A DNA stretch of 64,000 nt from Pecten maximus (taxonomy: Eukaryota), in assembly GCF_902652985.1 (NCBI RefSeq), contig NC_047027.1, positions 12,090,001 through 12,154,000 on the forward strand, in the 5' to 3' direction. The notes beneath the pieces are model-generated. The model had not been told where the DNA came from, searched no databases, and saw only the letters and a program-made list of their open reading frames with translations. The number at the start of each line of letters is the position of its first letter. The first letter of the stretch is position 1. Below are positions 5,528-43,600 of this stretch, one piece after another. Made by a program: the position numbers and the translations under genes.

Positions 5528-6613
5528 TTACACTTTCCCCACTCTTCTGCCGATTTTTCCCAGTTCGGTCCTGAATCGCTTATTGGTGGCTGTGTAGAAG
5601 TAAAAGTTGCTCGCGAAATGTGTGAATTGGATCAGATATACAATGGCCCAGGCGAGGTCTAGTGATTGTTCGACGTCCGAACTGGCATCTGGACGAACAT
5701 ACGAATCCACGATATAGTAGATGCATATCGGCAAACTGGCGGCGACAAAGTAAAACGTTGTAAACACCAACATTTTTGTCATTTTGGAGACAGACTGTTG
5801 TCCTTTCTGCGACATTCGGTTGCTGCCGTCTGATCCTGTTGATAGTCTTTTGTTACACCTCAGCTTTTGAATCTGTCGTATGATTAATATATTCAAAACA
5901 ATCATGATTACCCCAGGTATAATCACCAAAACGACCAGGTCTACATAAGTAAATACGAACTCCTCAAAGGCGTAAATGTCGTCTGCCAAAGAGTTACATT
6001 CGCCATCTAGGATTCCATTTGTGAAGAAATAATGAAAATCCAGGGCCGTTAGACACGCGCTGATAATTACCAGAATGATAATACTGTTTCTAATTGTCAC
6101 CAGCTTCCTTATGGTGGTAAACCGGTTGTCCAGTAGAACAGTTTTGATAAATCTGACACATGTAACTTGGACTAGTATCCATGACGACATATGCATGGAA
6201 AAATAGATCAAGAATAAGTGAAACTTGCAACTGAACCCAGAAACATCTCTTATATCAACATCAAATGTTGACTTTATCCAATACCGAGTAGGTCCAACAC
6301 ACAGCACAGTCATGTCAACAAAGGCCAACACGAATAACAGAATTAGAGTGGCGTTCTCGTAAAATTTTAAACGTTTTAGGACGTACACATTTAAAATGTT
6401 GCCAAAAATTCCGATGAAAAATATGAGAGGTGACAATACTGTCCACAGGCAGCTGTCAGGTGTTCCACAAACTCTGAACGAGTCGGTTTCAACAGATGGA
6501 ACTGTTGTGATATTCCTTTCGAACGACATCAAGCCAGTTGTCGAGATATTTATGTCCATTGAAATGTTCGTTTGTGTGATGACTGTGGAAAAAGTAGCCA
6601 TGCTGGTCGTCAT
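5528..6613 (-). CDS. Intronless rhodopsin-family (class A) GPCR, FMRFamide/peptide-receptor-like orphan
   Basis: 361-aa ORF with 7 hydrophobic segments. TM1 GIFGN, TM2 LAFVD, TM3 CKFHLF...SSWILVQVTCVRF, ECL2 Cys, TM5 IIPG, TM7 NFYFY plus helix 8 NKRFR. N-terminal N-glycosylation sequons (NIS, NIS, NIT). Confidence 0.92.
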   Translation of the reverse strand: MTTSMATFSTVITQTNISMDINISTTGLMSFERNITTVPSVETDSFRVCGTPDSCLWTVLSPLIFFIGIFGNILNVYVLKRLKFYENATLILLFVLAFVDMTVLCVGPTRYWIKSTFDVDIRDVSGFSCKFHLFLIYFSMHMSSWILVQVTCVRFIKTVLLDNRFTTIRKLVTIRNSIIILVIISACLTALDFHYFFTNGILDGECNSLADDIYAFEEFVFTYVDLVVLVIIPGVIMIVLNILIIRQIQKLRCNKRLSTGSDGSNRMSQKGQQSVSKMTKMLVFTTFYFVAASLPICIYYIVDSYVRPDASSDVEQSLDLAWAIVYLIQFTHFASNFYFYTATNKRFRTELGKIGRRVGKV

Positions 6614-6669
6614 TGTGAAAACAATTGCATGCGTTCAGTTGTCCATCTGTGTCACTCACTATAACACCC

Positions 6670-12335: not shown

Positions 12336-12919
12336 AAAATTAAACCGATGTATTACACATCAGTACCTGGCTGGTAAACAAATCGTGTATTCTTCCGGTT
12401 ATGACGGTGAAGGTTGATTATTATTGCTCTGGGATAAAGTCACTTCCGATTTATTGCATGGATTTCGGATCGACCATACACTATACACTTATCCTAATAA
12501 GAGCAATATCTGTACGTGGTGTATATTATAATGAAGGGTCATTTTTGTGCGCTAAAGATATTATATAAATCTGGCGTACATAAAGCGTACCAACCTTCGG
12601 GCGTAAATGATTTTTTGTGAAAGTCTAATTAGCCTGTTGGTAGTAGATCAAGTTACGTATAACGTATACAAGTAAATGAATAAAAAAAATGCTGCAATAT
12701 CAGGCTATAAATGAACCTAATAAAATAACCCTGGTTTTCAGTTGAAGAACGTGGCATTATCTGGAAATATCTTTGTTGGTGTCGTTGACGAGAAAAAGAC
12801 TTTTATGATATTTATTTCTTGGCACATTTTGAAGAATCTCCAATTCAATTTTTTTTTTACATCTCGTCCTCGATTAATCGATCGGAGATGCGCTTTTTCT
12901 AAACTTCCTATCCGTCACG

Positions 12920-13380: not shown

Positions 13381-14398
13381 GGGGCATCTAAACAGCAAAT
13401 CCAGCCAAAACAGTTGATATTTTACAAGGCTATACATCCATACTAGGGTGTTATTTAATAGAAATAACTTGATAACATTTTGATATGTATCATGTCAAAC
13501 TGTGGGCCTTTCTGTTGACATTCAATTTGTTCAGTAGTTCGTAAATTTCAACAAAATATGAGAAAAATGCATGTTTCAGGGGGAAATAATTAACTCATTT
13601 GTATCTCATTTATTGTGCAAAACAGTCATGTCGTTTTGCTCACAAGGGTCTAAAGCACAAAATAGGAGCATTGGTTTGACTAGATTGGACTTTATGATAT
13701 GTATTAACACTGATTTTATTTAGACCTTGAAATGCAAATGGCGGTTGTGAATAAGATCAGACAATTATGGCATATAAGAAGGTATTTCAAACGTCAAAAA
13801 TGCTCATATTATCCACTATAGAGAACTCTAGACATGGCAGGAAGACTGTTTTTAGGAAAAAATGTTCATCCGTTGAGTTTGGGGTAAAAGATATATATTT
13901 CTGAAAAAGGCCCAAAACTCACCAGTTTGACAATTTGTCTTAAAATGGTCATTCTTACTATAATCAGATGTCTTAAATGTATTATATAGGAGCATTTTTA
14001 ATGGCTGAAATACCCCCCTTTATGCCATATTTGTGTAATATCATCCACAGCCGCCATTTGCATTTCAAGGTCAAAACTAAATATGTGTTTATACCTACAT
14101 ACAGTCAAATCTGGTCAAACAAATGCTCCTACCCTGTGCTATAGACACCTGTGAGCATGACATCTGGGCTATTTTTCAGGTTTGGTTATTTTTGTGGCTT
14201 AGAATTATTCCATGGTACAACTTACCACAAAGTAACTCTGTAGAAGAAATTGTTAGCATCTACATCAAATTATTTGTGATTTTAAGACACTACATGTCCC
14301 AACAAACATTTTGGTATATTACATGACTATTTTTGTGCAATTTTAAAGCTATTTATTCGTGTTTGAAATTCAACATTATTCTGCTATATAGATGACCC
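13381..14398. mobile_element. Non-autonomous Kolobok-like DNA transposon with a TTAA target duplication
   Basis: TTAA at 13377-13380 and 14399-14402. TIRs ggggcatctaaacagcaaat versus gggtcatctatatagcagaat (reverse complement of the right end). Internal inverted arms at 13638-13810 and 13985-14157. Confidence 0.8.
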
Positions 14399-14989
14399 TT
14401 AAGCAGTAAAACATTTTGTGTAACATACGATCCCTTCATGTTTTGTACAATCTAAGTTAAAATCGCCTGTGTCCCATGAGAACATAGCACACATATTACA
14501 CTCCGAATTAAAGGCATATATGTCACATTTATAAGCGCGGGAACAGTGTCGACCACACGATATTTCATTTTCATTTTTTCTATTGAGAGTGCCACTCAGG
14601 GGAGATAACTTAGTGAAGTTATTATAAGCCACTTGAAATAGCCATACGTTGGTATCTAAACGATCGCGTATGCCGTCCATGCCAACCGAACACTGTTTAG
14701 GAACAATCTTCTTCAATTTGTCTTCGTCGGTATGCTCACGAAGTACGGAAGATGATGTAAACTGGCCACTAGATGAAAGGTTTGTGTTATTCTGTCTCAT
14801 CTCTTTAGAAGAATATTGTGCCTTTCCCTCTGTGACTAATTTATTCGACTCGTCTTTTCCCCGTCTGCTATTTTGCAGAACATGGTCAGTGGCAGAAAGA
14901 AGGATTGAAGAGGGGAATGAAACTTCTAACGATGAGCTTACAGGACTCAAAACTGCATCATACATGGTCTGCCCATTTATCCGTCGGGA
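14399..14989 (-). CDS. C-terminal part of the last exon: end of the stalk and PAN/Apple-like Cys-rich domain (frameshifted relative to upstream)
   Basis: ORF with SCGRHCSRAYKCDIYAFNSECNMCAMF (CxxxC...C...FN...C PAN pattern). Stop TAA at 14399-14401. Confidence 0.75.
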   Translation of the reverse strand, partial: SRRINGQTMYDAVLSPVSSSLEVSFPSSILLSATDHVLQNSRRGKDESNKLVTEGKAQYSSKEMRQNNTNLSSSGQFTSSSVLREHTDEDKLKKIVPKQCSVGMDGIRDRLDTNVWLFQVAYNNFTKLSPLSGTLNRKNENEISCGRHCSRAYKCDIYAFNSECNMCAMFSWDTGDFNLDCTKHEGIVCYTKCFTA

Positions 14990-17900
14990 TCATCTCTTCA
15001 TTTCCGTTTTCCGACCTGTCAGTATAGTCTATATGTGGACGGTGTTTCACAGACGACGGATAGATCCCGTTCCCTGCTGCAGACGTCACTGGTAATGGTG
15101 ACGTAGCAGCATGTATTGAACTTGGAATAGAGTCATATGATGGTCTTATCTGATGAGAATTTGACACTGAGCCCTCATCCATTAGGACTTTAGTGGTACT
15201 TCCCGTCACCTCATTCAGACTTCTCCTGATATCAGAGTTTTGTGATGGAGTATGCTGCTCCGCTTTTATGTCAACAAACGAATCCTGTGTCGACAATCTG
15301 TCTAATCCACTAGATCCACCCATCGGTCCGCCGTCATACCGCACCGACGTAACGACTTCATATCGCAATGTATTCGGGACAGCCTCGTTCGTATAAAAGT
15401 TGTCAATGTAAGGCCCATCAGAATCCGATCGGAAAGAACTAGTCAATGATGTAGTGTACATGTCATAGCGTAAAAGTCTTTGGCTCTCAGATTCTGTTGC
15501 ACTTGTGGCCACTTCCGGTAAGAATGCTTTGAAACTTTCACTGTTTCTTGCAGAAGCTTCAACCACACTATACAACCGTGCGCGTGCAGACACGTCAGTA
15601 GGCAATGGTGATTCAGCTGAAAGTGGGTCCATTTCTGTATCGGATTCAGTCTTTGAAACTAAGTTGGAGGAGAGGTAGGGAAACATGAAATTATTTATTC
15701 CGCTTTGCATTATGTACGCATCGTTAAACATTTCGAATGTTGTTGTTTTCAAAAATGATTCAGGTCCAAAATTAGCTTTAATCAAGACAGGAGAAGTGTA
15801 CGCATCCTTATCTGAGAACTCCGAGAACAAACCACCCTGCGTAGTCTCTTTTGCAACCAAATACCCTAAAGTATCTATATCGTTGACAGTTGTTTTTTTA
15901 TACTCATGCCTGAAGGTTTGTTGGCTCGGTACGCTTGTTACCTGTGAGTAAGTGTTTGGGGTTTCCTCTGACGGCAAGTGTTGTTCGTGGCTGCCTGCTG
16001 TATATTTTGACTCTGTTTCCTTATTGTAGCTTTGTATAGTTTCTACGGAAAGTACATGTTGAGCATTGCTGTGGTGGGTGTATATTACCGATACAGACTG
16101 GTCGTTGCTGTGGAAAACTGTTGTCGATATTTGTTGATCGTTGCTATGGAGGACTGCTGTCGATAATTGTTGATCGTTGCTATGGAGAACTACTGTCGAT
16201 ATTTGTTGATCGTTGCTATGGAGGACTGTTGTCGAAATTTGTTGATCGTTGCTATGGAGGACTGTTGTCGATATTTGTTGATCGTTGCTATGGAGGACTG
16301 TTGTCGATATTTGTTGATCGTTGCTGTGGAGGACTGTTGTCGATGCGGGTTGATCGTTGCTGTGGAGGACGGCTGTCGATACGGGATGATCGTTACTATG
16401 GAATGTGTATACTGTTGATATGGGTTGATCGTTACTATGGAGGACTGTTGTTGATACGGGTAGATCGTTGCTGTGGTATATGTATGCTGACGATAAGATT
16501 TGTTCATTCCTGTTGAGAGTGCTCTCTGTTTGTTGTATGAATTGGTCTGAATCAGAGGGAATGTGTAGATATTTGTCAGACGGGGCAGGGTATCCGATTC
16601 CTACGTCTTGTTCACTTAGTATACTGCCTGTAATTAAATGTACATAATTATGACAAACGGTGGCATGGATTAAAAAGTCTTATGTAGCTTCAAAGCGAGA
16701 GAACCAGTTAATTTATGACATTGGCATCTGATTAAGTTGTTTTGATATTCAATATGTAAGTCATAATATTTGTACATGGTATCTAGATAAAGAAACAACA
16801 TTCGGGATAAAGGTATGATACCGCAAAACGGTATACTCACATTTTGTTGACACCAATTCTATTTCTGAAAATGTAGACAGTACTGATATTTTGTACATAA
16901 ATTTACAAATAATTTCTGAATCATATAACTGAAAGTACAAATTACTTAATAGCTTGTAACAAGAACTTCTATTGGTTTAAAAATCATGCTAGCCCATTAC
17001 GTACAATATGACGTTACCATTTGTAACGTTACCTTTGACTGGATGATACAACGGAGTTATCATGTTTCAGAAAGAAGAATCCATTGAAAAGGGGTATTTT
17101 ATGGGGATTGTATATAGTATATCAAACGAAAAAATATATAAAATTAATCATTAAATATTAAACGATATTAGATATATATTCAGGTTAATCCTTAAATCCA
17201 TAAAGAATTAAATAAATTCAAGTTAATCATTTAATCTATTAAAGAGATATCAAATAATGTTAAATAACTCTGTGATGAAATATTGGGCTTCATTTCTATC
17301 GCTCCCTAAACACATTCTCATTGAGAAGGATTAACAACAAGTTTATACCACGTGACTTTATTTACCGTCGCAGAGATCTACACTGCAGTCTTCCCATTCA
17401 ATTTCTGGATCCAGGGTGAAGCACCAGGGGGTTCCCCTCAATCGATCCGGGTCTCTGCAGTAAGAACCCGTCATATTTTCCCCCGGAAATGACGTAGCTT
17501 TAAGTTCATGCATGTGGGGGAATTGACTCTCCCAAGCCTGACATTGTCTTCCGGAACTGGTACATGACCTATGACCCTTGTATTCATGAGATCGGCCAGC
17601 TTCATAGCATTCGTTTTCTAAAAATAATAAGTATAAAAAGAATTTGATCAACTTTATTACGGCTTCATTGATGAAATCAAGCATACACATCCTCGCGCAC
17701 ATTTATGGAAATCGTATATTGGATGGATGTATTTCAGAATCAAATTAGCATCACACAATGCGTATTTGTTTACAACTGTGTACAATCTTATTTCGTTTTT
17801 AATGTATCAGTGTCAAAAACAAACATAATATCGGATAATAACAGAATCCATGTCATTATCATCTGTTAACTATTGCACGTTAATGGAAATGAAATAACTA

Positions 17901-20900
17901 AATATAATATCATTAACTAAAACATTTTTGCTATGAATTTTCACTGTTATTTTTTCAAATGTTTTCAGTTTTTTTCGCTTTCTTTCTGTCTTTGTTTTAG
18001 TTTTTTGTGGTGGCTTCTTTGGTATCGACTCTTTGGTTGGTCCTTAGCATAATTGACGACTCCTAGAAGGACAATACAGATGTATGGTGCAGTTTTAGCT
18101 CTATGTAACTCTTTTAAATACAGTATATGCTTCTTTGATTGGACTTATCGAAGCCTTTTTATACAATAATATATTGCTACTCTATATGGTATTTAGCTCA
18201 ATCTTAATGTATACGAGTTTCCTATTCTCGCGGTACCTGAAATAAGGCTGTGGAATGCAACATTTTTTGTTGACGCCATTAATAGACAAGTAGTTTCGCT
18301 ACGTCCAATGGTTATTATTATTGTTATTAATATTGATTACATTGTCCATCACCTTTATAATATGCTTAAAACAAAAACGACATGTACCGCGAGAATATAG
18401 TTCTATAATACGTATATGTAGGTATTTGTTATTTGGTGACTAAGGAAACTGACCACCACATGATATAGAGGCCGCTGACCACCTTCCGTTTGTCTGGCAC
18501 ACTTGCACGGGGCAATAGCCGGTCGATGATTGTAAATTGGCCTGTATGTAGCTACACCGGAAGTGTATACTCGATCCGACATCCATGCTATAAATCGGAA
18601 GTGATTTAATCCCAGTGCAGTCATGATCAACCTTCACTGTCATATCCGGTAGATTACACGATTCTACATACTCTATAACACAGACAAAAATAAATATCAG
18701 CTTGAAAACATTACAATGTCTAAAGGTATACCCCAAAGGATTCTACAATTCACAGGCATACGAGTTTAGGTTTATCTATAGTATATACTTATGCCAAACT
18801 GGAGTCGTACCAACCTAGACTTATATAACACAGTAACTTAAACAATAGAAACGTAGGGTTTTAGGCATATAAGTACTTAACCATGGCATGTAGATAGCAG
18901 GGTTGAAACATTAAAAAAAAAAAAAAAAAAAAAAGTTTGATGACTACTGAATGTTTGTCAAGGGTAAAATAAACTAGTCAGCTTGGTATAGGTATGGTTG
19001 GAAATACCGCATTGGTGTCTAAGCTGTCGATTATCGATATACACCACTTTGTATTAGTACTCACGAACTTGTAAACATCAACAACGAATATAAGAAGTCG
19101 TGAGTGCAATCTGATAACAAAGTTCTCATTGTTGTACATTGACACAATGATACAGTATACCTAAGTAGGCATACTTATGTATAAGTGTACAGGAGGATCA
19201 GGCACGGGGCAGCTACCGGAATCTTCAAGAGGCCTCACAGGATCACCGAGAGTATATTGACATAATTGGCCCCTGGAAACCCTGACAGTTGAGATAAGGC
19301 ACTGGCACTTCTTTTTTAATTCATTTACAATTCATAGGAAGAAGGAGAAGGGAAAGACAAACATGCAACATAAGAAGATAGAGAAAGGAAGACAAACATG
19401 CAAAGACAAAGAAATGGACGGACCGATGAATAAAACAATAAACATGTAAAAAATTTAGAAAATTTAGTTACTTATAACATTCTTAACGCTCAATCAACAC
19501 TATCACGGTCATTGCGGCCAAAATGGTGATTAAAATGTGTTTGAAACGGAAAATAACTATCAACAAACGTTATACAGTGTAACTTCGTTAACTCGAAGTC
19601 GACGGGGCCCCACGAAAAAACTTCGAGTTATCCGAGTGTTCGAATTAAGCGAGTTATCATTTTTGGTGAAAATTTCGGTCAATATTTGTCAAGATTATAT
19701 AATCATTATAACTCCGCTCTCAGTCATGATAAAGTTTCTTTCACTTAGTCACTTCAATAACGATCTGATGTGCAAGTCATGTTTGCACAAGGAATAACGA
19801 TATAACGGAATTCGACAGAATAACAATTTATTCTTGTCAAATCAAATAACCGTCTAAGTTTGTATGTTATATCAGGTAGGAGACATAAAAACGCAATGTC
19901 GCGAACGAATCATGAAACACACGGGTCTACTAGCTTTTAATCTAACATCAATGATAATATATTAGATAGCTAGGATAACGACACTTTCTGAGCGTGCAAT
20001 TTGCCCGTGGTTCATGTGCAATTAAAACATACGTTATATAGATGGAAACGTAACCTGCAAAACAACATCTATACAGACAACGAATCAAAATCGATACATA
20101 CAAGATAGGCATTGATTGGTTTGATTTACTAGTGTTTTACGTCCTTTCGAAAAACTATTGTCATTTAAGGACGGCCTCCGTTGTATGCGATATGCATGCG
20201 TGTGGTGACTGTGTTTTGCGGTATGTTCGTGTTTATCTCAATGTGTAATGGCGGAACTGATATCGACTTTGTAGTGCTACATCACTGAAGTATCAAATGA
20301 GGGCGAAATGAAGATAAAAGTAAGATCAGGGAAAACATAAGGACAAGAGTTAAACGAAAATAAAACTTAAACAATGACAAAATAAGGACAAAACTTAGAT
20401 CAGAGATTCATATGGACGAGAGTTAAACGAAAATAAAACTTAAACAATGACAAAATAAGGACAAAACTTGATCAGAGATTCATATGGACGAGAGTTAAAC
20501 GAGAACAAAACTTAAACAATAACAAAATAAGGACAAAACTTAGATCAGAGATTCATATGGACGAGAGAGTTAAACGAAAATAAAACTTAAACAATGACAA
20601 AATAAGGACAAAACTTTGATCAGATTCATATGGACGAGAGAGTTAAACGAAAATAAAACTTAAACAATGACAAAATAAGGACAAAACTTAGATCAGATTC
20701 ATATGGACGAGAGTTAAACGAGAACAAAACTTAAACAATAACAAAATAAGGACAAAACTTAGATCAGAGATTCATATGGACAAGAGTTAAACGAGAACAA
20801 AACTAAAATCGGGGCAAATTAATAAAACAAACTTTAAAAATTTCCCTCCTTACAAAAAGAACAAAGAAACAAGACCATATAAGTAATAGTCTTTTTGTAT

Positions 20901-23900
20901 ATTTAACTCAAACAAATTCGATTACTCGTATGTAGATGGATATTTAATCTCGTGGGTTTTTTTTGTTTTGTTTTTTAAGCTTTAAAACAATTATAACCAA
21001 TATTTAACGAAATAGCTGGTAAAATCTTTATATCATTATTTCCCAAAATCTTGTAGCTGTTAGTAACAAATACGGACTAAACAGTTCATACGGCTATCGC
21101 ACTTTACGTCTGTACGGACATTAACTCAACGGGAATGGTAGGTACATGTAGGAGATGACCTCAATAGATCACAAAGACTTTCTGGGTCACTATCAAAATA
21201 TTATCAAATATGTTAACGAGATCATTATATAAACTGAAAAATATTCATTTACATTACCATTCTACCTAATAAATGATTGGTTATGTATTTGTTTAACGTT
21301 CTTATATGATGAGATGTGAGTTTTGGATGGTTACGTACGGTAGGTCCGTGTTTGACTCCTTGGGATATCACGGACCTGATGTCAACTATGGAGTGATAAT
21401 TTATTACCGAAGACACCCCAAGGGAGGCAATATCGAGGGAGGCACGGAAAATGAAAGGCTAACGTGTTTACAAAGAAAAGGACAAGATCTCAAATCACGA
21501 ATACGGGGTAGAAGGTACAAGTTCAGTGTCTCATCCCTAACAAATACTCACACACACATACATCACACATGTATATCTCGAATGCTAAGTGAGTCAATTA
21601 CCTCATCCCTAACAAATACTCACACACACATACATCACACATGTATATCTCGAATGCTAAGTGAGTCAATTACCTCATCCCTAACAAATACTCACACACA
21701 CATACACCACACATGTATATCTCGAATGCTAAGTGAGTCAATTACCTCATCCCTAACAAATACTCACACACACACATACATCACACATGTATATCTCGAA
21801 TGCTAAGTGAGTCAATTACCTCATCCCTAACAAATACTCACACACACATACACCACACATGTATATCTCGAAAGCTTAGTGTATCAATTACCACATCCCT
21901 TACCAATACTGACACACACATATACACCACACATACATATCTAGCATACAGGAGAAACCGTCCTAAATGACCTCAACTGTTGACAGGTTGTTAAACAATA
22001 CAAAATAAATCTACCAATATATCAGTGTGTTTGCGTTTGTTTGTTTTCTGTCTATTGTTCTTACTTCCTTTATTATAGATCCAGTTTCCGGGAGAAAGAT
22101 TTTAAAAATTTTGTCGTGTGTTGTTTTTCTGTCAACCCGGTGCGCTAAGTACAAATGTAGGCTTATATAGTGATATTTAAAACGTCGTGTCTAAGTCATT
22201 TACGTATGACTATACAATCCAAAGTCCTCTGGTCTAAGTGAAGTGACCCTGGTTACCTCCAACTGATTCACGATATGTGTCAAGGATTGGATTTATTTTT
22301 TTTTCAAATAGAAACTGCATGTTAATCTAGTAACAGATGATATATGAACATCATAAACAGCAGGATAAGTACTGATAATATGACTCATTCAAGTACTGGC
22401 TATAAGTATCTCGACTCCAAATGTTTTTTTCTCTTTTTTCTTCTTCTTCTTTTTCTTGTCGGTAGAGAAATTAACAGTTATGACAAAATATTTTTGAGAC
22501 AAAGTATGTACTTATTCACCATATGCTTACTGTGCTTTGACTTTTACATGTAATAAAACCGTTTAAGAAAGTGTCTTTTTTTACACATCTGTAATATAAC
22601 CGGTAGTGATTGGTTAATTCCGTGTGAAATGTATTCCTGCGCGTGGCCACGTGTGAACGTAAACATTTTGTCTAAAAGGCGAATTACCAAAACAAACCCC
22701 CGAATTACAGGTTGTCGACATTAGCAGCCGTTAAACGACACCAATGTTCACATTTCTTCAACACGCCTGTCGTCACCTGTGTTCTATCAAATTCATTTTT
22801 TATTTCTACGCGCAAAAATCGACTGTTTCTTTCATATATTTCATATAAACGAAAATAAGTAAGGAAAATGAAGAGAATGAAAATGCAGAAGTTGATACAA
22901 AAATATTAAAAGAAGTTTGATATTTTTTCTGGTACTATTTGACTATTTGATTTTAGTGACGAGGTCCAATATGACCCTGGTCAGTTCATAGGTCAACTGG
23001 TTGAATGCTCTTAATGGAGAGCAACGGAAGTAAATATGAGCCATATGACAAATAGAATATGTCAGGAGTTTCCCGTCAGATAAGATTGATGATACTCGTT
23101 TTGAACTCGCGAAAAGGCTTGTAAAATTGCAAAATTCAAAACTTGTATCATTACTACTTTAGTATTATAAAACAAGATTATGTGCCAAAGGATGGAAGGC
23201 ACAACGAAAACATAGTCTCTACCCACATTAATCCGTTCTCCTATCAACCATGTTTCAATATACTCCAAAGCAATCATTTACTTTGAAAAAAAAGTAACCT
23301 TAAAATGACAAGAAATGGAATAAAATGGAAAAGGAACCACAGGGTGAGTGTCTTGGAATGTTCCCAAAATAATTTTAATTTCATCAAATGTCTCCTTACT
23401 ATTTTGATATGATAATTTATATTAGCTTGTTATTTATTAATAGGAATGCGATATATAGTGAAAGGATTTACATACCTTCATCACATGCTGTTTCCAGACG
23501 TTTTTCTGCAAACATAGAGAAACAAAATCATGCAATTCATGCTAAGATAAGGACGAATATTGTAAGTCTAAAAATATCGTAGAAATAGAGAAGAAAAAAA
23601 TCAACGCTCATTAACATTTTCGAGGGACATTTTGTTTCGTCATTGTGTTATTTTCAGTGGGTTTTACTTTTGTAATTGCAATAAGAATTTGGAATAAATG
23701 ATATCCCGTTTCATATCTCTTTGATACCGTCACAAATAGGGACATCACAGAACTCCCACGGGACCGGAACTGACGTGGCTTTTATATGACACCAAGGAGC
23801 ACCCTTCTCTCCTCCCGGGTCCCGGCAGTATCTATGGTCCTGTCCAGAATACCCATGATTCCTCCATATCTCACACGCATGTCCATTGACTGTACACTTC

Positions 23901-26409
23901 CGACGACCTTTGTAAGCCTCGGATTTACCGCGCGGATAACATTCATTCACTGAAAAATCGGTGTGAATACTCAAATATATTTGCTGAATTATTTCGTTCA
24001 ATATTTCATACTATTCCTAAAAGTGCAATGTCAAAATTTATTTTATTGTATCAATTATTCATGCCTTAATATACCCATTCCAATAAAACGCTAAAAACAC
24101 TCGTTCCCGGTAAGAGTAATTGGTGATTTGAAGCATAGCATCAGCGGTGGTCAACTCGCATTTAGTTGACTCATTCCAACATAACACCCGTGAATACTGG
24201 AAAATGAAAATATTGATATGATTCTAAAACTAACCATTTAAAAAAGTACAAAGAAAAATGATGAGTGCACAATCATCTGTCAGAGGGAAATTTGTACCTA
24301 GCGCGTTTAACTAATAGATAAGATGAAAAAAGAGCAACAACACCCAAAGATATGTCTGTGGAAGCTTAAGATGATAACTTTGCCCAGGAACAGAAATAGA
24401 AAAAGTGATAGTGATAAAAAAAATACAGAAGAATGAACATACAGGATTAAATACAGTCGGCATGATTCCATCCATGGTGGTTAAACACGATGGATGACAC
24501 AGGAGGTTCAATAGTCCCCTAGTTCAATTGATTTGATTATTTTCAATATCGGATTTCTAAAGAACGTTAAAACATGTACACGACACATATTTCTAATTTT
24601 ATTGCAGAGAAAAGTCTTTTTAGCCTTGCAGTGATTTGGTCGAGGAAATATCGAGTTTTTTTTGTTTTTCGGGTTTTTTTGTTTTTGTTTTTGTTTTTGT
24701 TTTTTTTTCATGGCTACCCAATCTACCATGAACAATGGTAAACTTGATTTATTTTAGGTCAATTGCGAAACAAGTTATACAATCTATTATCAATCACTGA
24801 CGAAAACACAATGTGCCAAATACAACTAGGACATATTAAGAACACTCCGTGCACGTGATAAAACGTGATTTCGACGTCCCTTCCTGGTTAATATGTGATG
24901 CTTTCTTGGCAGAAAGATCTGAAGAGTTTCTAATTTGAATATAACTATTGTTACGGTTTTCCCAGCCATTGTATTATATCAACGCCCGCTTCCTGCATGT
25001 TATTCTACCAAATGAGGAATATATACTAAAATTTCTTGTTTCCATATAATTATGACCATTAGTATCGATATTTTGCACTAATAAACATCGACATTAATCA
25101 GAATGAAAGTTGAATATGTTACCTGCACAGGACAAAGAAGCAGTCGACCATTTCCCATTGTCCTGACAAATCTCCACGGGACAAAAATCGATCTCCGACT
25201 CCCGGAGACCAGTCAGGAGAGTGGCACAGCTGTACCTAATAATTGACCCGGGGGTACGACTGAACGGCACGAGGGGAGATAAGGTCAAACACGTGTCATC
25301 TGTTGTCACTGTCAGACGGGACTCCCCGCAATCTGTAATAACGCAAACGTGATATATCAAGTATTAAATACTGATACAGATATGTAATAACGGAAACGTG
25401 ACATACATGTATATCAACTATTACATACTGACACAGATCTGTAGTAACGGAAACGTGGCAAATAGTCACCTGGTGTTAGCTATTCATGTACAGATTCTTA
25501 AACGCTTAAATTGCGTAGATCAGTCCTTTTTTTTTTTATAAAAATGGCGCCGTCAAGTTGACGTGGAGTAATCTTACAAAGACACGACGTCATGAATTAG
25601 TTAACTGATTCCCGCGTTTTTTTATCAAAACTATACTGTACTAATTTAAAATGTTTTTAATATTTTGTTGATGAATGCGAAAATTTTCCGTTTGATAAAA
25701 CATATATTTCACTCGTATAACATAATACTTTGATTTTTTCATTGGTGCTTCGCACTCGTGAAAGCATCGATAGTCTGTCATACTTGTGAAATACATATAT
25801 GTTTTATCAAACGGGAAACCATTCAATATCCTCTATATATTCTTGTGCAATCATTTACAATTTTCCTTTTTAAAGTAACAGGGTCTGCGATATTCAGGTG
25901 AAAAATAATTACTTTTGTTATCATATCTCGACCTATAATAGTTATATAACCGAATGAGAAGGCTTTGTGATGTAAACTTACAGATTTGAAAACTTGAAAG
26001 TTAGTTTTGATGCAAAAAAAGTCCTTAACTTGATACAATTTGAAATAATTATAAAATATTACTCAGCTGTAACATCACCTCAAAACATTCACTTGTATAT
26101 AAAATTGTATACTTAATTGGGAGGATGTGGGTGTATGTTTATGGACTTATAAGCCTTCCAAAATTTTTACCCTAAATGCGATAGAAACTTTTATACGTTT
26201 TTTTTCCATATCACACCATATAGTTACAAACACGCATATATACAATGTATATATCTCAGATCTTAGGCGCTTATGGAAACATAGTTAGTTCAGTACAATA
26301 ACTGCATTAATTTATCTCTGTAATAAATTATTAACTTACCGATGCTGCTTACAAGTCTACATATTCCTGATGTAAACATTCCAAAAAGAATCCGAAGATA
26401 CCCGTCCAT
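14399..26409 (-). CDS. Secreted mosaic protein: signal peptide - Sushi-like - Kringle - Sushi-like - Kringle - Ser/Thr-rich stalk - PAN/Apple-like (gene span, 6 coding exons)
   Basis: join(26340-26409, 25123-25332, 23728-23949, 18454-18672, 17366-17617, 14399-16627). All introns are GT-AG and phase 1. A 1-nt frameshift near 14961-14989 gives 880 aa as assembled, or about 1066 aa if corrected. Confidence 0.8.
14958..16627 (-). CDS. Exon 6, Ser/Thr-rich mucin-like stalk
   Basis: Acceptor taattacag at 16628. The frame is open from 16627, continuous with the 339-aa ORF, to TGA at 14958. Confidence 0.8.
16100..16480 (-). repeat. Coding 36-bp tandem repeat (STTVLHSNDQQI)
   Basis: About 10 in-frame copies within exon 6. 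Confidence 0.9.
17366..17617 (-). CDS. Exon 5, Kringle domain 2
   Basis: ECYEAGRSHEYKGHRSCTSSGRQCQAW...YCRDPD..GTPWCFTLDPEIEWEDCSVDLC, bounded by tttttag and gtaaat. Confidence 0.92.
18454..18672 (-). CDS. Exon 4, Sushi/CCP-like domain 2
   Basis: GSSIHFRC...CPVQVCQTNGRWS...SC. Paralogous to exon 2. An alternative in-frame acceptor would start the exon at 18663. Confidence 0.85.
19572..19660 (+). mobile_element. Tc1/mariner-pogo-type MITE terminus (one end only)
   Basis: TA-cagtgtaacttcgttaactcgaagtcg...cttcgagttatccgag...ttcgaattaagcgagtt. Confidence 0.5.
20118..20295 (-). mobile_element. 3' half of the SINE family seen at 48404-48796
   Basis: gtcatttaaggacggcctcc...tgcatgcgtgtggtga...gcggtatgttcgtg...tagtgctacatcactgaag is the reverse complement of the SINE 3' half. 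Confidence 0.75.
20340..20805. repeat. ~73-bp tandem repeat, about 6 copies
   Basis: gagttaaacgaaaataaaacttaaacaatgacaaaataaggacaaaacttagatcagagattcatatggacga. Confidence 0.95.
21530..22010 (+). repeat. 72-bp tandem repeat (about 5.5 copies) ending in a SINE tail
   Basis: Unit ctcatccctaacaaatactcacacacacatacatcacacatgtatatctcgaatgctaagtgagtcaattac. It runs into ccgtcctaaatgacctcaactgttgacaggttgttaaac. Confidence 0.9.
23728..23949 (-). CDS. Exon 3, Kringle domain 1
   Basis: ECYPRGKSEAYKGRRKCTVNGHACEIW...YCRDPGGEKGAPWC...WEFCDVPIC, bounded by ttttcag and gtatca. Confidence 0.92.
25123..25332 (-). CDS. Exon 2, Sushi/CCP-like domain 1
   Basis: DCGES...PGSIIRYSC...FCPVEICQDNGKWSTASLSCA, bounded by ttacag and gtaaca. 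Confidence 0.87.
26340..26409 (-). CDS. Exon 1, signal peptide
   Basis: MDGYLRILFGMFTSGICRLVSSI followed by G|gtaagt. Phase 1 matches exon 2. Confidence 0.7.
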
Positions 26410-30365: not shown

Positions 30366-31011
30366 TAAGCCTTTATCAAAGCTTCATAGAAAGCAACATT
30401 AGAGCACTAGCTTCATATCTACAGATGAACAATTCTGGTCTGAAAGGGGATTGGTTCTGTTTTGTTTTACCATCAACAATAGTTATAGGTACTGCGAGGG
30501 AAGTTAACGTAACACTCATTAACAATACATGTATACTGGTTTTATTAAATTTCTGAAAAATACAGAGATTACACTTACAACAGCCTGAAGTAACTGTCAA
30601 GAATGACCACTACTGGTTTACTATTAACTTCCAGGAGGATTTATACTAATCTTAATGTTGGCAGATTATCATTATTATCATTTGTTTTGTTTATTACATT
30701 GTACAAGATTTACAAATATACATAGTACTGTGTCGGATCAAACAAAGTCTTTCTGAAGCGACCTCTTCCCTACAAAGAGGGAATTCAAATTAAGAATATT
30801 ACTGTTGTACACAAAAACTTTTCATAATCATCATTACAAGTTCCTTTTTCTCCATTGTGAAAAAATTAACCAAAAAGAAAAATACACATATGCATATGAT
30901 GGATAAACATTCGTCGAACTTTTAGAAAATGTTCGATGAAATAAATTGTGACTAGAAATGTGTAGGAGGAGAACTATGTCAGGACCATGTCACTAAATTA
31001 TGGATGGTCAG

Positions 31012-33489
31012 CAACTCTGACTAGGACTAGTTCAGATTCCAGTGTTTGTAGGGCAGATTCAACAACTCTGACTAGGACTGGTTCAGATTCCAGTGTTTGT
31101 AGGTCAGATTCAACAACTCTGACTAGGACTAGTTCAGATTCCAGTGTTTGTAGGTCAGATTCAACAACTCTCACTAGGACTGGTTCAGATTCCAGTGTTT
31201 GTAGGTCAGATTCAACAACTCTGACTAGGACTGGTTCAGATTCCAGTGTTTGTAGGTCAGATTCAACAACTCTGACTAGGACTGGTTCAGATTCCAGTGT
31301 TTGTAGGTCAGATTCAACAACTCTGACTAGGACTGGTTCAGATTCCAGTGTTTGTAGGTCAGATTCAACAACTCTGACTAGGACTGGTTCAGATTCCAGT
31401 GTTTGTAGGGCAGATTCAACAACTCTGACTAGGACTAGTTCAGATTCCAGTGTTTGTAGGTCAGATTCAACAACTCTCACTAGGACTGGTTCAGATTCCA
31501 GTGTTTGTAGGGCAGATTCAACAACTCTGACTAGGACTGGTTCAGATTCCAGTGTTTGTAGGGCAGATTCAACAACTCTGACTAGGACTGGTTCAGATTC
31601 CAGTGTTTGTAGGTCAGATTCAACAACTCTCACTAGGACTGGTTCAGATTCCAGTGTTTGTAGGGCAGATTCAACAACACTGACTAGGACTGGTTCAGAT
31701 TCCAGTGTTTGTAGGTCAGATTCAACAACTCTGACTAGGACTGGTTCAGATTCCAGTGTTTGTAGGGTAGATTCAACAACTCTGACTAGGACTGGTTCAG
31801 ATTCCAGTGTTTGTAGGTCAGATTCAACAACTCTGACTAGGACTGGTTTAGATTCCAGTGTTTGTAGGTCAGATTCAACAACTCTGACTAGGACTAGTTC
31901 AGATTCCAGTGTTTGTAGGTCAGATTCAACAACTCTGTCTAGAACTAGTTCAGATTCCAGTGTTTGTAGGGCAGATTCAACAACTCTGACTAGGACTAGT
32001 TCAGATTCCAGTGTTTGTAGGGAAGATTCAACAACTCTGACTAGGAATAGTTCAGATTCCAGTGTTTGTAGGTCAGATTCAACAACTCTGACTAGGACTA
32101 GTTCAGATTCCAGTGTTTGTAGGGCAGATTCCAGTGTTTGTAGGGCAGATTCAACAACTCTGACTAGGACTAGTTCAGATTCCAGTGTTTGTAGGGCAGA
32201 TTCAACAACTCTAGGACTAGTTCAGATTCCAGTGTTTGTAGGTCAGATTCAACAACTCTGACTAGGACTGGTTCAGATTCCAGTGTTTGTAGGTCAGATT
32301 CAACAACTCTGACTAGGACTAGTTCAGATTCCAGTGTTTGTAGGTCAGATTCAACAACTCTGACTAGGACTGGTTCAGATTCCAGTGTTTGTAGGTCAGA
32401 TTCAACAACTCTCACTAGGACTAGTTCAGATTCCAGTGTTTGTAGGTCAGATTCAACAACTCTGACTAGGACTAGTTCAGATTCCAGTGTTTGTAGGGCA
32501 GATTCAACAACTCTAGGACTGGTTCAGATTCCAGTGTTTGTAGGTCAGATTCAACAACTCTGACTAGGACTGGTTCAGATTCCAGTGTTTGTAGGTCAGA
32601 TTCAACAACTCTGACTAGGACTGGTTCAGATTCCAGTGTTTGTAGGTCAGATTCAACAACTCTAGGACTAGTTCAGATTCCAGTGTTTGTAGGTCAGATT
32701 CAACAACTCTGACTAGGACTGGTTCAGATTCCAGTGTTTGTAGGGCAGATTCAACAACTCTCACTAGGACTGGTTCAGATTCCAGTGTTTGTAGGTCAGA
32801 TTCCAGTGTTTGTAGGGCAGATTCCAGTGTTTGTAGGGCAGATTCAACAACTCTGACTAGGACTGGTTCAGATTCCAGTGTTTGTAGGGCAGATTCAACA
32901 ACTCTGACTAGGACTAGTTCAGATTCCAGTGTTTGTAGGTCAGATTCAACAACACTGACTAGGACTGGTTCAGATTCCAGTGTTTGTAGGGCAGATTCAA
33001 CAACACTGACTAGGACTAGTTCAGATTCCAGTGTTTGTAGGTCAGATTCAACAACTCTGACTAGGACTAGTTCAGATTCCAGTGTTTGTAGGTCAGATTC
33101 AACAACTCTGACTAGGACTGGTTCAGATTCCAGTGTTTGTAGGTCAGATTCAACAACACTGACTAGGACTGGTTCAGATTCCAGTGTTTGTAGGTCAGAT
33201 TCCAGTGTTTGTAGGGCAGATTCAACAACTCTGACTAGGACTAGTTCAGATTCCAGTGTTTGTAGGTCAGATTCAACTCTCACTAGGACTGGTTCAGATT
33301 CCAGTGTTTGTAGGTCAGATTCCAGTGTTTGTAGGTCAGATTCAACAACTCTGACTAGGACTAGTTCAGAATCCAGTGTTTGTAGGTCAGATTCCAGTGT
33401 TTGTAGGTCAGATTCCAGTGTTTGTAGGTCAGATTCAACAACTCTGACTAGGACTGGTTCAGATTCCAGTGTTTGTAGGGCAGATTCAA
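31012..33489. repeat. 51-bp satellite (21-bp + 30-bp subunits), about 48 units
   Basis: cagattccagtgtttgtaggt + cagattcaacaactctgactaggactggtt. Confidence 0.97.
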
Positions 33490-37617: not shown

Positions 37618-40600
37618 CTGAAACATAATACAGATTCATATTATCAAAGTGATAAGTCGCAGATTCATATCATCAAAGTGATTAGTCACAGATTCATGTC
37701 ATCAAAGTGGCAGATTCATGTCATCAAAGTGATTAGTCACAGATTCATGTCATCAAAGTGATAAGTTGCAGATTCATGTCATCAAAGTGATAAGTTGCAG
37801 ATTCATGTCATCAAACTGATAAGTTGCAGATTATGTCATCAAAGTGATAAGTTGCAGATTCATGTCATCAAAGTGATAAGTTGCAGATTCATATCATCAA
37901 AGTCGCAGATGCATGTCATCAAAGTGATAAGTTGCAGATTCATGTCATCAAAGTGATTAGTCACAGATTCATGTCATCAAAGTGATAAGTTGCAGATTCA
38001 TGTCATCAAAGTGATAAGTTGCAGATTCATGTCATCAAAGTCAGGGATTCATGTCTTCAATGTGATTCGCCACAGATTCATGTCATCAAAGTCAGGGATT
38101 CATGTCATCAAAGTGATTTGTCACAGATTCATGTCATCAAAGTCAGGGATTCATGTCATCAAAGTGATTAGTCGCAGATTCATATCATCAAAGTCAGCGA
38201 TTCGTGTCATTTAAGTCAAGGTAATTTGGAGGATTGTACACAAGTCTTTTGCACTTTTCAATACAAATTGAGAGTAAGAAAGAGTTGCGCCTAAAATGAA
38301 TTAAACATGGTTACATCACACATCTGTTTGGTCCATCTAGGACTCGTCAGTGATGCTAAGGGCCTAAACTGTTACAGGCAAATAATAAGACAACAAGAAA
38401 TGTTAAAGTCTAGATGGGGAGATGTGATAGCCCCACTATTCAATAAATTTTATTACATTAAATATTGCAATTTTAACATTGATTTTATCACAACTGCTGG
38501 ATCCTACCTGGACAACAGCTTCACAAAAAAAGAGAAAATCTTGGCGCTAACTCTGATCTTGTTTAATCATAGCAACAAAAAAGTGCTCTAATTTCAACCT
38601 CCAAACAAACTTGCTATTGGATGTGAACTCCTTGACATTCACCACACAGACAAACCTTGAAGATTGGATGTCAAATCATTGACATTCTCAACACAACCCT
38701 GAAGATTGCATGTCAAATTATTGACATTCACAACAGACAAACCCTGAAGATTGCATGTCAAACACAGACAAACCCTGAAGATTGCATGTCAAACACAGAC
38801 AAACCCTGAAGATTGCATGTCAAACACAGACAAACCCTGAAGATTGCATGTCAACTAATTAGCATTCACCACAAAGACAAACCCTGAAGCAGACACCATT
38901 AACAGTTTCATTAAACAGCCATCCAGGGGTGGTTTATTTCCTAAGTCGCATACTGTTAACAAAATCTGTACTCACTGTTGGACCTCCAGGGTTCCAAGGA
39001 CTTCATATGCATATTCACAACGATTGTCAAGCTCTAGGGCGGTGTTGATAGTACGAGTGGCTTCCTTAATGTCTTTATCAGCCTGCAGCTTCAGCAACCT
39101 GAAACAGACATCACATAGTTTAACACAAGTCTATTGGACATGATTCAAGTCTATTGGTAAATCAATGATGGCTCCTTGAAAATGTTCATTACATGTACCT
39201 TTGTTGACTTATCTTGTGAATATCAACGGTTTCCTATTTCAATTTAACATGATGCAAGTCTATATATATTACAGCAAAACACTACATGTATGTATGTAGA
39301 ATATGTCAATGAATGATCAACTCGGCAAACATCTCTCGCCCTTTGGCAGTTCAGGTTAAAATTGCACGTTCGTCAACCAATAGGTACGTGACACTTTTAA
39401 CCCTCCAGCCTTTGGGCTTATTTACAGAGAATCCTTCTCATCCATCATATCAGAGGTACGCGGATGAGAGGGGGATTTTACCTTGACAATATGGAATACA
39501 AGCTATATGCTAAATATGTTGTGAAGTATCGATCAGTCAATTATTATCATTACCATTATTTAAGGTAACCAAAGTTTTTAAGATTAAGTTTGTCATCAAC
39601 ATAATGAGTGACCTGAAATCATCTATAAAATGTCTTGTAACTAGAAAATGTCTGTAAGACATAAATGCCCCTGCTGCCACTTGACATCTTGAAACAAAGT
39701 TCAGTGAGGATTGCATCAGCAGTTCCTGAGATTAGCTAGTTACATGAATGTACATTGTATTGGGACGGGATAGACATGGCTAACACTATATGCTTCCTCA
39801 TTTAATGGCGGTGGCATAAAAATGTCTCCTATTAGGAAATGAGAGATAAACAGATAGATAGATAAACTATCTTTGACCCGGTAACTGATGCATTGCCGAG
39901 ACGAAACAGGCCATTTGACAGACCAGGCAGGATGGACAGGGACAAACTGGGAGGAACATCCCTGGGAAATAAGGCCTGGTGGGATGGACAGGGACAAACT
40001 GGGAGGGACATCCATCAGTAACATGGCCTGGCATGATGGACAGGGACAAACTGGGAGGGACATCCATGGGTAACATGGCCTGGTGGGATGGACAGGGACA
40101 AACTGGGAGGGACATCCATGGGTAATAAGGCCTGGTGGGATGGACAGGGACAAACCAGGAGGGACATCCATGGGTAACATGGCCTGGTGGGATGGACAGG
40201 GACAAACGAGGAGGGACATCCATGGGTAACATGGCCTGGTGGGATGGACAGGGACAAACTGGGAGGGACATCCATGGGTAATAAGGTCTGGTGGGATGGA
40301 CAGGGACAAACTGGGAGGGACATCCCTGGGTAATAAGGTCTGGTGGGATGGACTGGGACAAACTGGGAGGGACATCCATGGGTAACATGGCCTGGTGGGA
40401 GGGACAGGGACAAACCGGGAGGGACATCCATGGGTAACATGGCCTGGTAGGATGGACAGGGACAAACCGGGAGGGACATCCATGGGTAACATGGCCTGGT
40501 GGGATGGACAGGGACAAACTGGGAGGGACATCCATGGGTAATAAGGCCTGGTGGGATGGACAGGGACAAACTGGGAGGGACATCCATGGGTAACATGGCC

Positions 40601-43600
40601 TGGTGGGATGGACAGGGACAAACTGGGAGGGACATCCATGGGTAATAAGGCCTGGTGGGATGGACAGGGACAAACTGGGAGGGACATCCATGGGTAACAT
40701 GGCCTGGTGGGATGGACTGGGACAAACTGGGAGGGACATCCATGGGTAACATGGCCTGGCGGGGTGGACAGGGACAAACTGGGAGGGACATCCATCAGTA
40801 ACATGGCCTGGCAGGGTGGACAGGGACAAACCAGGAGAGACATCCATGGGTAACATGGCCTGGTGGGATGGACAGGGACAAACTGGGAGGGACATCCATG
40901 GGTAATAAGGTCTGGTGGGATGGACAGGGACAAACTGGGAGGGACATCCCTGGGTAATAAGGTCTGGTGGGATGGACTGGGACAAACTGGTAGGGACATC
41001 CATGGGTAACATGTCCTGGTGGGATGGACAGGGACAAACTGGGAGGGACATCTATGGGTAATAAGGTCTGGTGGGATGGACAGGGACAAACCAGGAGGGA
41101 CATCCATGGGTAACATGCCCTGGCGGGATGGACGGGGACAAACTGGGAGGGACATCTATGGGTAATAAGGTCTGGTGGGATGGACTGGGACAAACTGAGA
41201 GGGACATCCATGGGTAACATGGCCTGGTGGGATGGACAGGGACAAACTGGGAAGGACATCCATGTAACATGGCCTGGTGGGATAGACAGGGACAAACTGG
41301 GAGGGACATCCCTGGGTAATAAGGTCTGGTGGGATGGACAGGGACAAACTGGGAGGGACATCCATCAGTAACATGGCTTGGCACGATGGACAGGGACAAA
41401 CCAGGAGGGACATCTATGGGTAACATGTCCTGGTGGGATGGACAGGGACAAACTGGGAGGGACATCCATGGGTAACATGGCCTGGCGGGATGGACGGGGA
41501 CAAACTGGGAGGGACATCTATGGGTAATAAGGTCTGGTGGGATGGACTGCCTGGTGGGATGGACAGGGACAAACTGGGAGGGACATCCATCAGTAACATG
41601 GCTTGGCACGATGGACAGGGACAAACCAGGAGGGACATCCATGGGTAACATGGCCTGGTGGGATGGACAGGGACAAACCAGGAGGGACATCCATGGGTAA
41701 CATGGCCTGGCGGGATTGACAGGGACAAACTGGGAGGGACATCCATGGGTAACATGGCCTGGTGGGATGGACAGGGACAAACCGGGAGGGACATCCATGG
41801 GTAATAAGGTCTGGTGGGATGGACAGGGACAAACTGGGAGGGACATCCATGGGTAACATGTCCTGGTGGGATGGACAGGGACAAACTGGGAGGGACATCC
41901 ATCAGTAACATGGCCTGGTGGGATGGACAGGGACAAAGTGGGAGGAACATCCATGGGTAATATGGCCTGGCGGGATGGACAGTGACAAACTGGGAGGGAC
42001 ATATATGGGTAACACTGCCCTACTCTCCCCATAAAATAGTCGGGGTATAAAGATTACCTTTTTTTTCAAGTTCAAATAATTGTATTGCTAAAAAAAAAAG
42101 AATAAAACACAATGAGCTGGCCTCATACAGGAGAGGATCAATTTAACTTACCGAACATTCATACTATATTTTAATTTTGATATTAAAATGTATAATCAGT
42201 CTATTACAAGTATCATTAACAAGAGGCCGAAGGGCCTTAAAGGTTATCTGACTCTAAAGACCCTTGTTCTATTGTAGTAAACATACTCAGTAGCAAGTAT
42301 AGTGGTACTGTTGGCCATGGCGAAGTAGCGAACATTGTGGATTTTGACCCGACCAGAAAATAAACAACACTTGGTCAGGACCATCTTCAGGATCATTTCA
42401 GGTAAGTTAGAGCTGAATCCCACTGGTGGAATTTGAGAAGTTTGAAATAGGTGTTGTTCAGGAAAACCATGATTGCGCAATCATGTTACAAAATGGCCGT
42501 CGTGGCTGCCATGTCAAAGTTTTTATGAGGCCGAAAAATAACAACACTTTGCTGGCTCCCCTAAGCCTTCCTTAACATCCTCACCAATTTCCAGTTCAAT
42601 GGCACCTGTGGACCCTTCGGGTCAGATGACCTAAAAGTTACCTCTTATTAAGTGAATGTTAATGGAAACTCCACCTACCCTCTATGTACGAGAGCTGTGG
42701 CATTGTCCGGATCAAGTCGCACAGCTTCTGCAAACTGAACCTCTGCTTCCTCAAATTTCCCAGCGTCCCCAAGGGCCTGAGCATAGAGTGCGCGGGCATC
42801 ACCATTAGTGGGGAACATTTCAACATTTGCCTTATAAGACTGTAACACTGTCTGGGGGAGGGGCAGGTTAGAGCCCATCATCTGCATAGCAGTTCTCTTG
42901 TGTTCTGAAAGTAGACATATCCTACTAACTGAGGCAGTGGAATCCCCGACAACATCATCTCAATTTACACAAAATGTTTTTGTTAAGTTGGAAGTCTTTT
43001 TCCCTAAATAAGTAATAATATATAAATATATATATGAGATAGGGTTTATATGAAGGTCTCCATTCAAACTTTCTGGAAATAATTTTCTGTTTCATGATGT
43101 GCCCCGTTGAAATCCCATGGAATTTTCCTGTGCACAGAATTTCCACGTAGGATATATGTAAACAAATTGTTGTAATTTTTGCTGAATCTTATTTTACAAT
43201 TTATTAGTTTAAACAAGGAAAGAGCCTTTCTCGTCACTCAATGAGATACATTTCAAAAATCCTACAAGGATACTCCAGAATATTTACCTGCAAAAGACTT
43301 CTGTACATGAGAAGCAGCAAATGTTGGATCCTTTGAGATAGCATTCTCTAGATCTCTTAAGGCGTCATCTATCCTCTCCAATTGGATGTTGTGCTGAAAT
43401 TACAGTTTTCTATATTCACCTATCCTCATGGCTAGATGTATTGGCATGAACATAATTAATTATTCAACTAATGAATGTTGGAAATGAAGCTATAAACACA
43501 AAAGTCAACAAGTTCAAAAAACATAAAAAAATTATTTTCTATTTCCAATATGCTGCATATGTGCAAAATACGTTTTGATCTTTGGGAAAAGACAACAATT

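Follow-up and report, generated by a model that had tools for sequence, protein, structure and literature searches.

A repeated Sushi-like/kringle unit and a terminal PAN domain in an apparently undescribed family of bivalve proteins

What does a gene encode that joins kringles to Sushi-like and PAN domains and has no protease? The question is raised by LOC117340434 of the king scallop Pecten maximus, which lies on the minus strand, at positions 26409–14399, of a 64,000-nucleotide stretch of contig NC_047027.1 (positions 12,090,001 to 12,154,000). That whole stretch is here called the window, positions below refer to it, and all parts of the gene are on its minus strand. An initial annotation had proposed six exons encoding a signal peptide, two Sushi-like/kringle pairs, a mucin stalk and a C-terminal PAN domain, joined in a lineage-specific protein. 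We conclude that the gene belongs to what is apparently a bivalve-wide, undescribed family of probably secreted, enzyme-free proteins built from a repeated Sushi-like/kringle unit and ending in PAN, and that in the scallop assembly the PAN domain lies out of frame.

The gene, its repeated unit and the family

The exon structure follows from the database protein. With the second Cys-rich exon as query, one of two candidates was returned: P0002, the 898-residue product of LOC117340434, which is identical across the query. Only an eight-exon structure, joined throughout by phase 1 introns, reproduces P0002 letter for letter. The six exons first proposed are all real, with GT/AG borders and five phase 1 introns, but a 30-nt exon (23505-23476), a 24-nt exon (16864-16841) and an acceptor at 18672 must be added. 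Both micro-exons directly follow a kringle exon, both are symmetric in phase 1, and each supplies one Cys. Because the odd Cys of a kringle is matched by the odd Cys of the next exon, the six-exon model would leave unpaired cysteines. Thus, what had been described as a two-exon cassette has three exons. The broader reading of a protease-free secreted mosaic built from symmetric phase 1 exons is supported.

Exon 1 (26340..26409) provides the ATG and, judging by hydropathy, a probable signal peptide in 23 codons plus one nucleotide, corresponding to residues 1-23 of P0002. This hydrophobic N terminus has a phase 1 exon to itself and aligns with the clearer signal-like ends of the relatives P0006 and P0010, and an 11-residue hydropathy of 1.86, compared with 1.49-3.42 in five relatives, makes a signal peptide plausible. 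Exon 2 (25123..25332, 210 nt, phase 1-1) encodes the first of two six-Cys Sushi-like domains, X1, and exon 5 (18454..18672, 219 nt, with a second in-frame acceptor at 18663) encodes the other, X2. Kringle 1 is encoded by exon 3 (23728..23949, 222 nt) and has a shortened middle loop, and kringle 2 is encoded by exon 6 (17366..17617, 252 nt). The micro-exons are exon 4, which contains a linker Cys, is required for P0002 and has the borders TTTGCAG and GTATGT, and exon 7 (TTTTCAG and GTGAGT), whose linker Cys codon spans the junction with exon 8. Each of the two units of P0002 consists of a six-Cys X, a seven-Cys kringle and a linker Cys, and they are 40% identical to each other. A module tree leaves the two scallop units unresolved and the hypothesis of a single clade was not rejected (p-AU, the approximately unbiased test, 0.216), a result that establishes neither separate nor common duplication. 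Intron 4 also holds two minisatellites (20336-20808 and 21530-21942, with periods of 73 and 72). A short Cys-containing open reading frame (ORF) of the same intron, near 19175-19310 on the minus strand, was rejected as an extra exon, being absent from P0002 and matching none of the X, kringle and PAN profiles.

The kringles are secure. Both exceed the Pfam PF00051 cut-off of 34.3 bits (38 bits, E=2.2e-9, for kringle 1; 73.8 bits, E=1.5e-20, for kringle 2), as the annotation of two kringle domains would lead one to expect, and the similarity of kringle 2 to the kringles of plasminogen and HGF reaches E ~1e-18 per domain. Six of their Cys align with those of plasminogen kringles, and a seventh is extra. 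The seventh Cys (R-x-C) is found in 21/21 family kringles, collected with a pattern in which it was optional, and vertebrate kringles have no Cys at that site in the five alignments compared. Moreover, a linker Cys follows within 14 residues in 18 of the 21, where the scallop micro-exons lie. As the kringle exon and the exon after it each contribute an odd number of Cys, the simplest reading is a fourth disulfide: the seventh Cys most likely pairs with the micro-exon Cys and would clamp the linker back onto the kringle. Lysine-binding kringles, such as plasminogen K1 and K4 and apolipoprotein(a) KIV-10, have an Asp-x-Asp anionic centre and an Arg before a Trp/Tyr-Glu/Asp motif. When these positions were read from alignments of plasminogen/HGF-type kringles, neither motif was found in any of 25 family kringles, and scallop kringle 2 is without a complete lysine-binding motif.

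The X domain has six Cys and a G-x-W motif, and it contains the four-Cys, one-Trp pattern of Sushi domains (complement control protein, CCP) with two Cys added. Its model is all-beta, with a predicted local distance difference test score (pLDDT) of 71.8, and 26 of 50 rows of a fold search were CCP proteins as judged by their titles. When the X profile was compared with PDB sequences, 19 of the 21 weak matches were complement CCP proteins (best E=0.057). X is likely, though not proven, to be a divergent CCP with one extra disulfide. Of the label "Sushi-like," what stands is a pair of related Cys-rich domains (38% identical); the likeness to Sushi is itself weak, with a Pfam E value of 0.11 for X2 and no match for X1. 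We note that a 102-bp inverted copy of the first half of exon 5, 86% identical, lies at 12381-12482 on the plus strand, about 2 kb past the 3' end of the gene. Its beginning coincides with the inner acceptor (18663), no intron or upstream exon clearly contributes to it, and it is probably a dead fragment.

A limpet pedal-mucus protein that joins Kringle and Sushi domains with ApeC and a C-type lectin (PMC7333891) lends some weight to a role in humoral immune recognition or complement-type regulation, in which the CCP-like domains would bind C3-like proteins and PAN would bind microbial glycans. Such a role is doubtful. The complement matches of X speak for it, but any Sushi-like domain returns complement proteins, and this is to be expected because these dominate the PDB. 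Variable copy number, common in bivalve immune genes, would also fit, but complement regulators use runs of three to four CCPs, whereas the X domains alternate with kringles.

How widely the unit is distributed was assessed with profiles of X. A profile of the two X exons recovered 39 proteins at E<=0.001 among 1.84 billion representatives; five of these, ordinary proteins with many Sushi domains, were excluded from subsequent counts, and many of the remainder are fragments of a single exon. With a wider profile, 6 proteins were found among 7999 candidates scored, named from Mercenaria, Pecten, Solemya, Ruditapes and Dreissena, genera that we take to span protobranch, pteriomorph and heterodont bivalves. 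The gene is therefore not lineage-specific in any narrow sense, as the unit recurs in named proteins of the other four. A PAN-like C terminus was present in 10 of the 15 proteins having both X and kringle, as counted with a profile built from the same ten, four of which pass the Pfam PAN_1 cut-off independently. PAN is C-terminal in all 10, including Ruditapes, Dreissena and Mercenaria, and the other five proteins are P0002, three seemingly partial proteins and a Solemya model. P0002 itself carries the unit of the family and, owing to the frameshift described below, no in-frame C-terminal PAN. Pfam trypsin matches and GDSGG or TAAHC motifs were absent from 16 proteins, and the family members have no transmembrane-like stretch save for one borderline value of 1.61. 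In the scallop gene, no exon ORF scanned with Pfam matched trypsin and the best 19-residue hydropathy past residue 35 was 0.83, in agreement with the annotated absence of a protease and of a membrane anchor.

The number of units varies across the family from one to five or more, and in the scallop architecture only the spacer of about 650 residues is unusual. In P0006, P0010 and P0043, exactly two units are combined with PAN and a long spacer is absent. Short spacers rich in Thr and Ser are found in P0021, P0033 and P0034, and in several members a single unit is accompanied by a short Thr-rich spacer. The entire 444-codon frame of P0006 fits on its source contig of 2002 bases, which points to a spliced transcript. 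In the Mercenaria protein, a partial kringle is followed by five complete units, and two old unit types alternate, 79-82% identical within and 42% between types; the 97% identical units of P0003 are a recent pair in the trees. In P0004, two ordinary Sushi domains are added before PAN, and in Solemya two kringles stand in a row after the first X, layouts that represent further shuffling in the family. Finally, the ESM Atlas gave feature scores of 0.76, useful as leads only, and structure matches to kringle proteins at TM<=0.39.

The last exon and its frameshift

Exon 8 opens with a 555-residue spacer (14958..16627) that is acidic, Ser/Thr-rich and Cys-free, and that ends at a TGA (14960-14958). 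Mucin PTS domains are long regions dominated by Pro, Thr and Ser, usually to about half or more. With 25.4% Ser plus Thr, 5% Pro and 12.3% Asp plus Glu, the spacer reaches 30.5% Pro, Thr and Ser, and its best 50-residue window 36% Ser plus Thr; it therefore falls short of the mucin stalk that had been proposed. The annotated Ser/Thr-rich stretch is real and probably disordered, but its length of about 650 residues holds only if the frameshift is ignored. Within it, a 36-bp coding tandem repeat (16102..16476; 10.3 copies by Tandem Repeats Finder) yields ten copies of a His-containing 12-residue unit with an HSND core. The His-Ser-Asn-Asp repeat might bind metal or mineral and is likely to be polymorphic in length. 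A Pfam ATR1_WY match on the repeat was below the cut-off and was taken as compositional.

The PAN/apple domain and its TAA stop (14399..14650) are intact but out of frame as assembled, and an AATAAA about 40 nt past the stop (14352..14357) is, by motif, a possible polyadenylation signal. A profile built from the C termini of ten relatives, without the window and without the Mizuhopecten protein introduced below, matches the PAN ORF at E=1.5e-8, and the next of 1124 window ORFs did no better than E=0.68. The model of the domain (pLDDT 73.1) has the beta-beta-alpha-beta fold and C-x3-C-x5-C hairpin of PAN/apple domains. Its best fold match is the HGF N domain (Z 7.5, under the tool's caution level of 8; root-mean-square deviation [rmsd] 3.0; 73 aligned residues), and the top 18 rows are all PAN/apple-type chains, among them HGF N, NK1 and NK2, plasminogen PAN, parasite apple and MANEC. 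Pfam PAN_1 alone stays below its cut-off (E=0.15), and Foldseek gave a best E value of 0.039 and none at E<=0.001. The fold and the family profile nonetheless bear out the annotated PAN-like domain.

The HGF matches bring up the possibility of a receptor ligand, that is, a protease-free and permuted analogue of HGF NK1/NK2 that would signal through a bivalve receptor. The family has the same kinds of domain as NK2, the best PAN fold matches are to HGF N/NK1/NK2 and plasminogen PAN (Z 7.0-7.5), and the PAN cysteines of HGF are needed for MET signalling (PMC9249922). These Z values, however, tie with those of parasite apple lectins and MANEC, at 10-15% identity, and PAN is C-terminal and in scallops some 650 residues from the kringles, so that a compact N-K1 unit cannot form in sequence order. 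Moreover, one to five or more units would suit avidity better than a fixed receptor geometry. We consider a receptor ligand rather unlikely.

Whether the scallop makes a single chain ending in PAN, as annotated, is a separate matter, and the sequence as assembled does not encode one. The six-exon join stops at codon 878, at the TGA at 14960-14958, and P0002 ends at the same TGA without PAN. The PAN ORF (14989-14399) is in a different frame from the spacer and the two overlap only at 14961..14989, within which a surplus of one base or a deficit of two, modulo 3, would account for the shift. The exact position is not resolvable, as crossover scores ranged only from 425 to 446 over ten positions, with the 5' end of the overlap slightly favoured and homopolymers of at most 3 nt. 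The two frames are united in P0001, the 409-residue product of Mizuhopecten LOC110458988 (one match among 858 candidates), residues 121-201 of which match the upstream frame (81 residues, 42%, E=6e-8) and residues 212-407 the downstream frame (42%, E=2e-43). Because one chain matches both frames, the ancestral exon was continuous. The annotated order of two Sushi-like/kringle pairs, spacer and PAN is thus very probably that of the intact ancestral product but is not encoded by the frameshifted assembly. An ATG in the PAN frame immediately precedes the early TGA (both within 14965-14958, minus strand), probably by coincidence. Separate translation of PAN from it was rejected on the reasoning that the product would have no signal peptide.

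The PAN frame has no stop or shift across 196 codons and shares 8 of 9 Cys with P0001. Identity to P0001 is 28% in the remaining, out-of-frame part of the spacer (14651..14957, ORF residues 1-94) and 54-58% in PAN (58% in its core), and on this comparison the downstream frame was under selection. In a neutral simulation with assumed rates and 0.1 indels per substitution, the proportion of runs that kept the frame open fell from 53% at 1% divergence to 4.6% at 5% and 0.2% at 10%; without indels it was 15% at 10% divergence and 3.8% at 20%. The frameshift is therefore young. One might argue that the gene is decaying in P. maximus, or that it makes only the 898-residue protein without PAN, the PAN ORF lying defunct in the 3' untranslated region. 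The database model ends at the early stop, and no strong splice bypass was found. We regard this as improbable, as the conserved PAN frame and Cys and the low neutral survival require any loss to be recent, and exons 1-7 are intact.

How the frameshift arose bears on the same point. The published P. maximus assembly, which we take to be the source of the window, was built from PacBio reads and polished in three short-read rounds in which only homozygous edits were applied, and the heterozygosity is 1.71% (PMC7191990). Three rounds of polishing make a plain consensus error less likely, which would suit loss of PAN, but a heterozygous null allele would persist under homozygous-only editing at that heterozygosity. 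Thus, a heterozygous null allele fits best, and a segregating null allele is a distinct possibility at a little under an even chance; an assembly error and a recently fixed change are both unlikely origins, to an equal degree. Bypass by recoding or splicing is very improbable. Twelve frame-compatible acceptors were considered and judged unlikely; their pyrimidine tracts are weak (5-12 of 20), the donors are mostly poor, and homology to P0001 runs through both flanks.

Several observations weigh against the reading favoured here, a secreted binding protein of repeated units and spacer with a terminal PAN. P0001 has only 409 residues and is without N-terminal units, no single scallop record holds the whole chain, and the link between its halves depends on the 81-residue spacer overlap with P0001 and on the stalkless relatives. 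Moreover, a second AATAAA lies at 14845-14840, about 110 nt past the early stop, so a transcript ending before PAN is possible, and the Solemya model has units but no PAN. The putative signal peptide of the scallop protein includes an Arg and ranks with the weaker examples in the family. Two of the 21 complete kringles have no linker Cys (the second of P0010 and that of P0020), and one further kringle is truncated. Finally, the assignment of X to Sushi is below every threshold applied: the Pfam PF00084 cut-off of 20.7 bits was not reached by X2 (13.4 bits), by X1 or even by the best relative (P0006, 19.9 bits), and in the fold search CCP chains scored Z 3.7-3.9 (DAF, rmsd 3.1, 53 aligned), an unrelated chain Z 4.1 and none 5 or more, and Foldseek found nothing at E<=0.001.

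A possible tether, and the surroundings of the gene

How the protein might act is best approached from its parts. The protein probably begins with a signal peptide, its modules are all disulfide-rich and of the binding type, and it has neither a catalytic domain nor an anchor. These features point to a soluble, non-catalytic adaptor or tether, and to such a multivalent extracellular binding protein we give an even chance. Its unit would be the three-exon cassette, in which a six-Cys Sushi/CCP variant, three residues and a kringle are followed by the Cys-bearing micro-exon, the clamped linker leading to the next of one to five or more units and then to C-terminal PAN. The result may be a two-ended tether in mucus, extracellular matrix or haemolymph. 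At one end PAN could bind a glycan or a protein, as PAN domains are reported to mediate binding between proteins or between carbohydrate and protein (PMC9249922); at the other the Sushi-kringle units might bind protein partners, not via a lysine site. In scallops the two ends would be held apart by a long, flexible, probably O-glycosylated spacer, and valency and spacing would vary by species through unit number and spacer length.

Elsewhere, the window contains an intronless rhodopsin-family G-protein-coupled receptor ORF on the minus strand (5528-6634; 368 residues stop to stop; 7tm_1 E=1.6e-13, Srw E=1.3e-10), a multi-exon gene on the same strand (42675-55187) with TPR matches and an N-terminal hydrophobic anchor, which resembles mitochondrial Tom70, and a voltage-gated potassium channel gene on the plus strand (59364-62245; BTB_2 E=5.6e-21, Ion_trans E=8.1e-24). 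Large minisatellite arrays at 1-1148, 31008-33489, 39930-42014, 49036-50502 and 56117-59121 (periods 38, 51, 52, 155 and 39) yield long spurious ORFs, as do the two in intron 4, and Rfam gave no matches in the window.

Relation to known kringle proteins

Is the family new? Literature searches of titles and abstract openings, which did not extend to subscription papers or to supplements that may list the loci, found no characterised protein with this domain order, as had been suspected, and no account of the family; neither LOC117340434 nor LOC110458988 was named in any paper found. We conclude that this is a real and apparently undescribed bivalve family, a variant of known mosaic proteins, and since mosaic extracellular proteins are common in molluscs the surprise is moderate. 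What it offers is an old bivalve family mislabelled in databases as plasminogen-like or apolipoprotein(a)-like, a kringle subtype marked by its seventh Cys and Cys micro-exon, together with a Sushi variant of six Cys that escapes Pfam, and a clear example of shuffling and repeated multiplication of a module of three exons, one of them a micro-exon. It also reveals a scallop reference protein without its conserved C-terminal domain, and the compact members of 270-440 residues make function testable.

The names already attached to members are automatic. The "plasminogen-like" proteins of Ruditapes and Dreissena and a hypothetical protein of Solemya have the same X-kringle-linker unit and so belong to the same family, and none has the long spacer. 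The Mercenaria member is called "apolipoprotein(a)-like," which reflects kringle similarity only. Like apolipoprotein(a), the bivalve proteins show tandem kringle amplification and variable copy number, but their repeated unit includes the Sushi-like domain and the Cys linker, and they end in PAN rather than in an inactive protease.

Two published proteins approach the arrangement. In amphioxus SRCR-Kringle-LDLRA-PAN-trypsin proteins, PAN also follows the kringle, but these have SRCR, LDLa and trypsin and no Sushi-like domain (PMC6337849). The limpet P-vulgata_14 is a secreted molluscan protein with Kringle and Sushi, but it is an astacin peptidase that also has ApeC, CUB, C-type lectin and ShKT, and PAN is not among the domains listed (PMC7333891); the likeness is one of domain labels.

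The plasminogen/HGF/MSP family provides the closest comparison. HGF splice forms NK1 and NK2 lack the protease, and they and that family combine PAN and kringles in secreted proteins, much as proposed here. The bivalve protein would work like the non-catalytic part of such mosaics. Membership in plasminogen/HGF is nonetheless excluded by the position of PAN, which is C-terminal in 10/10, and by the absence of a C-terminal trypsin-like domain. In the bivalve family PAN comes last instead of first, a Sushi-like domain precedes each kringle, the kringle has a seventh Cys, and there is neither a protease or protease-like domain nor a lysine-binding motif. It is a long shot that a family of receptor ligands equivalent to HGF NK1/NK2, but without a protease, arose separately in bivalves from a new disulfide-clamped kringle type fused to a six-Cys CCP variant. 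Such a counterpart would have PAN moved to its C terminus, its valency set by the number of units (one to five or more) and its reach by the spacer (about 5-650 residues), and, on the same slender chance, PAN-bearing and PAN-less forms of it may coexist in king scallops.

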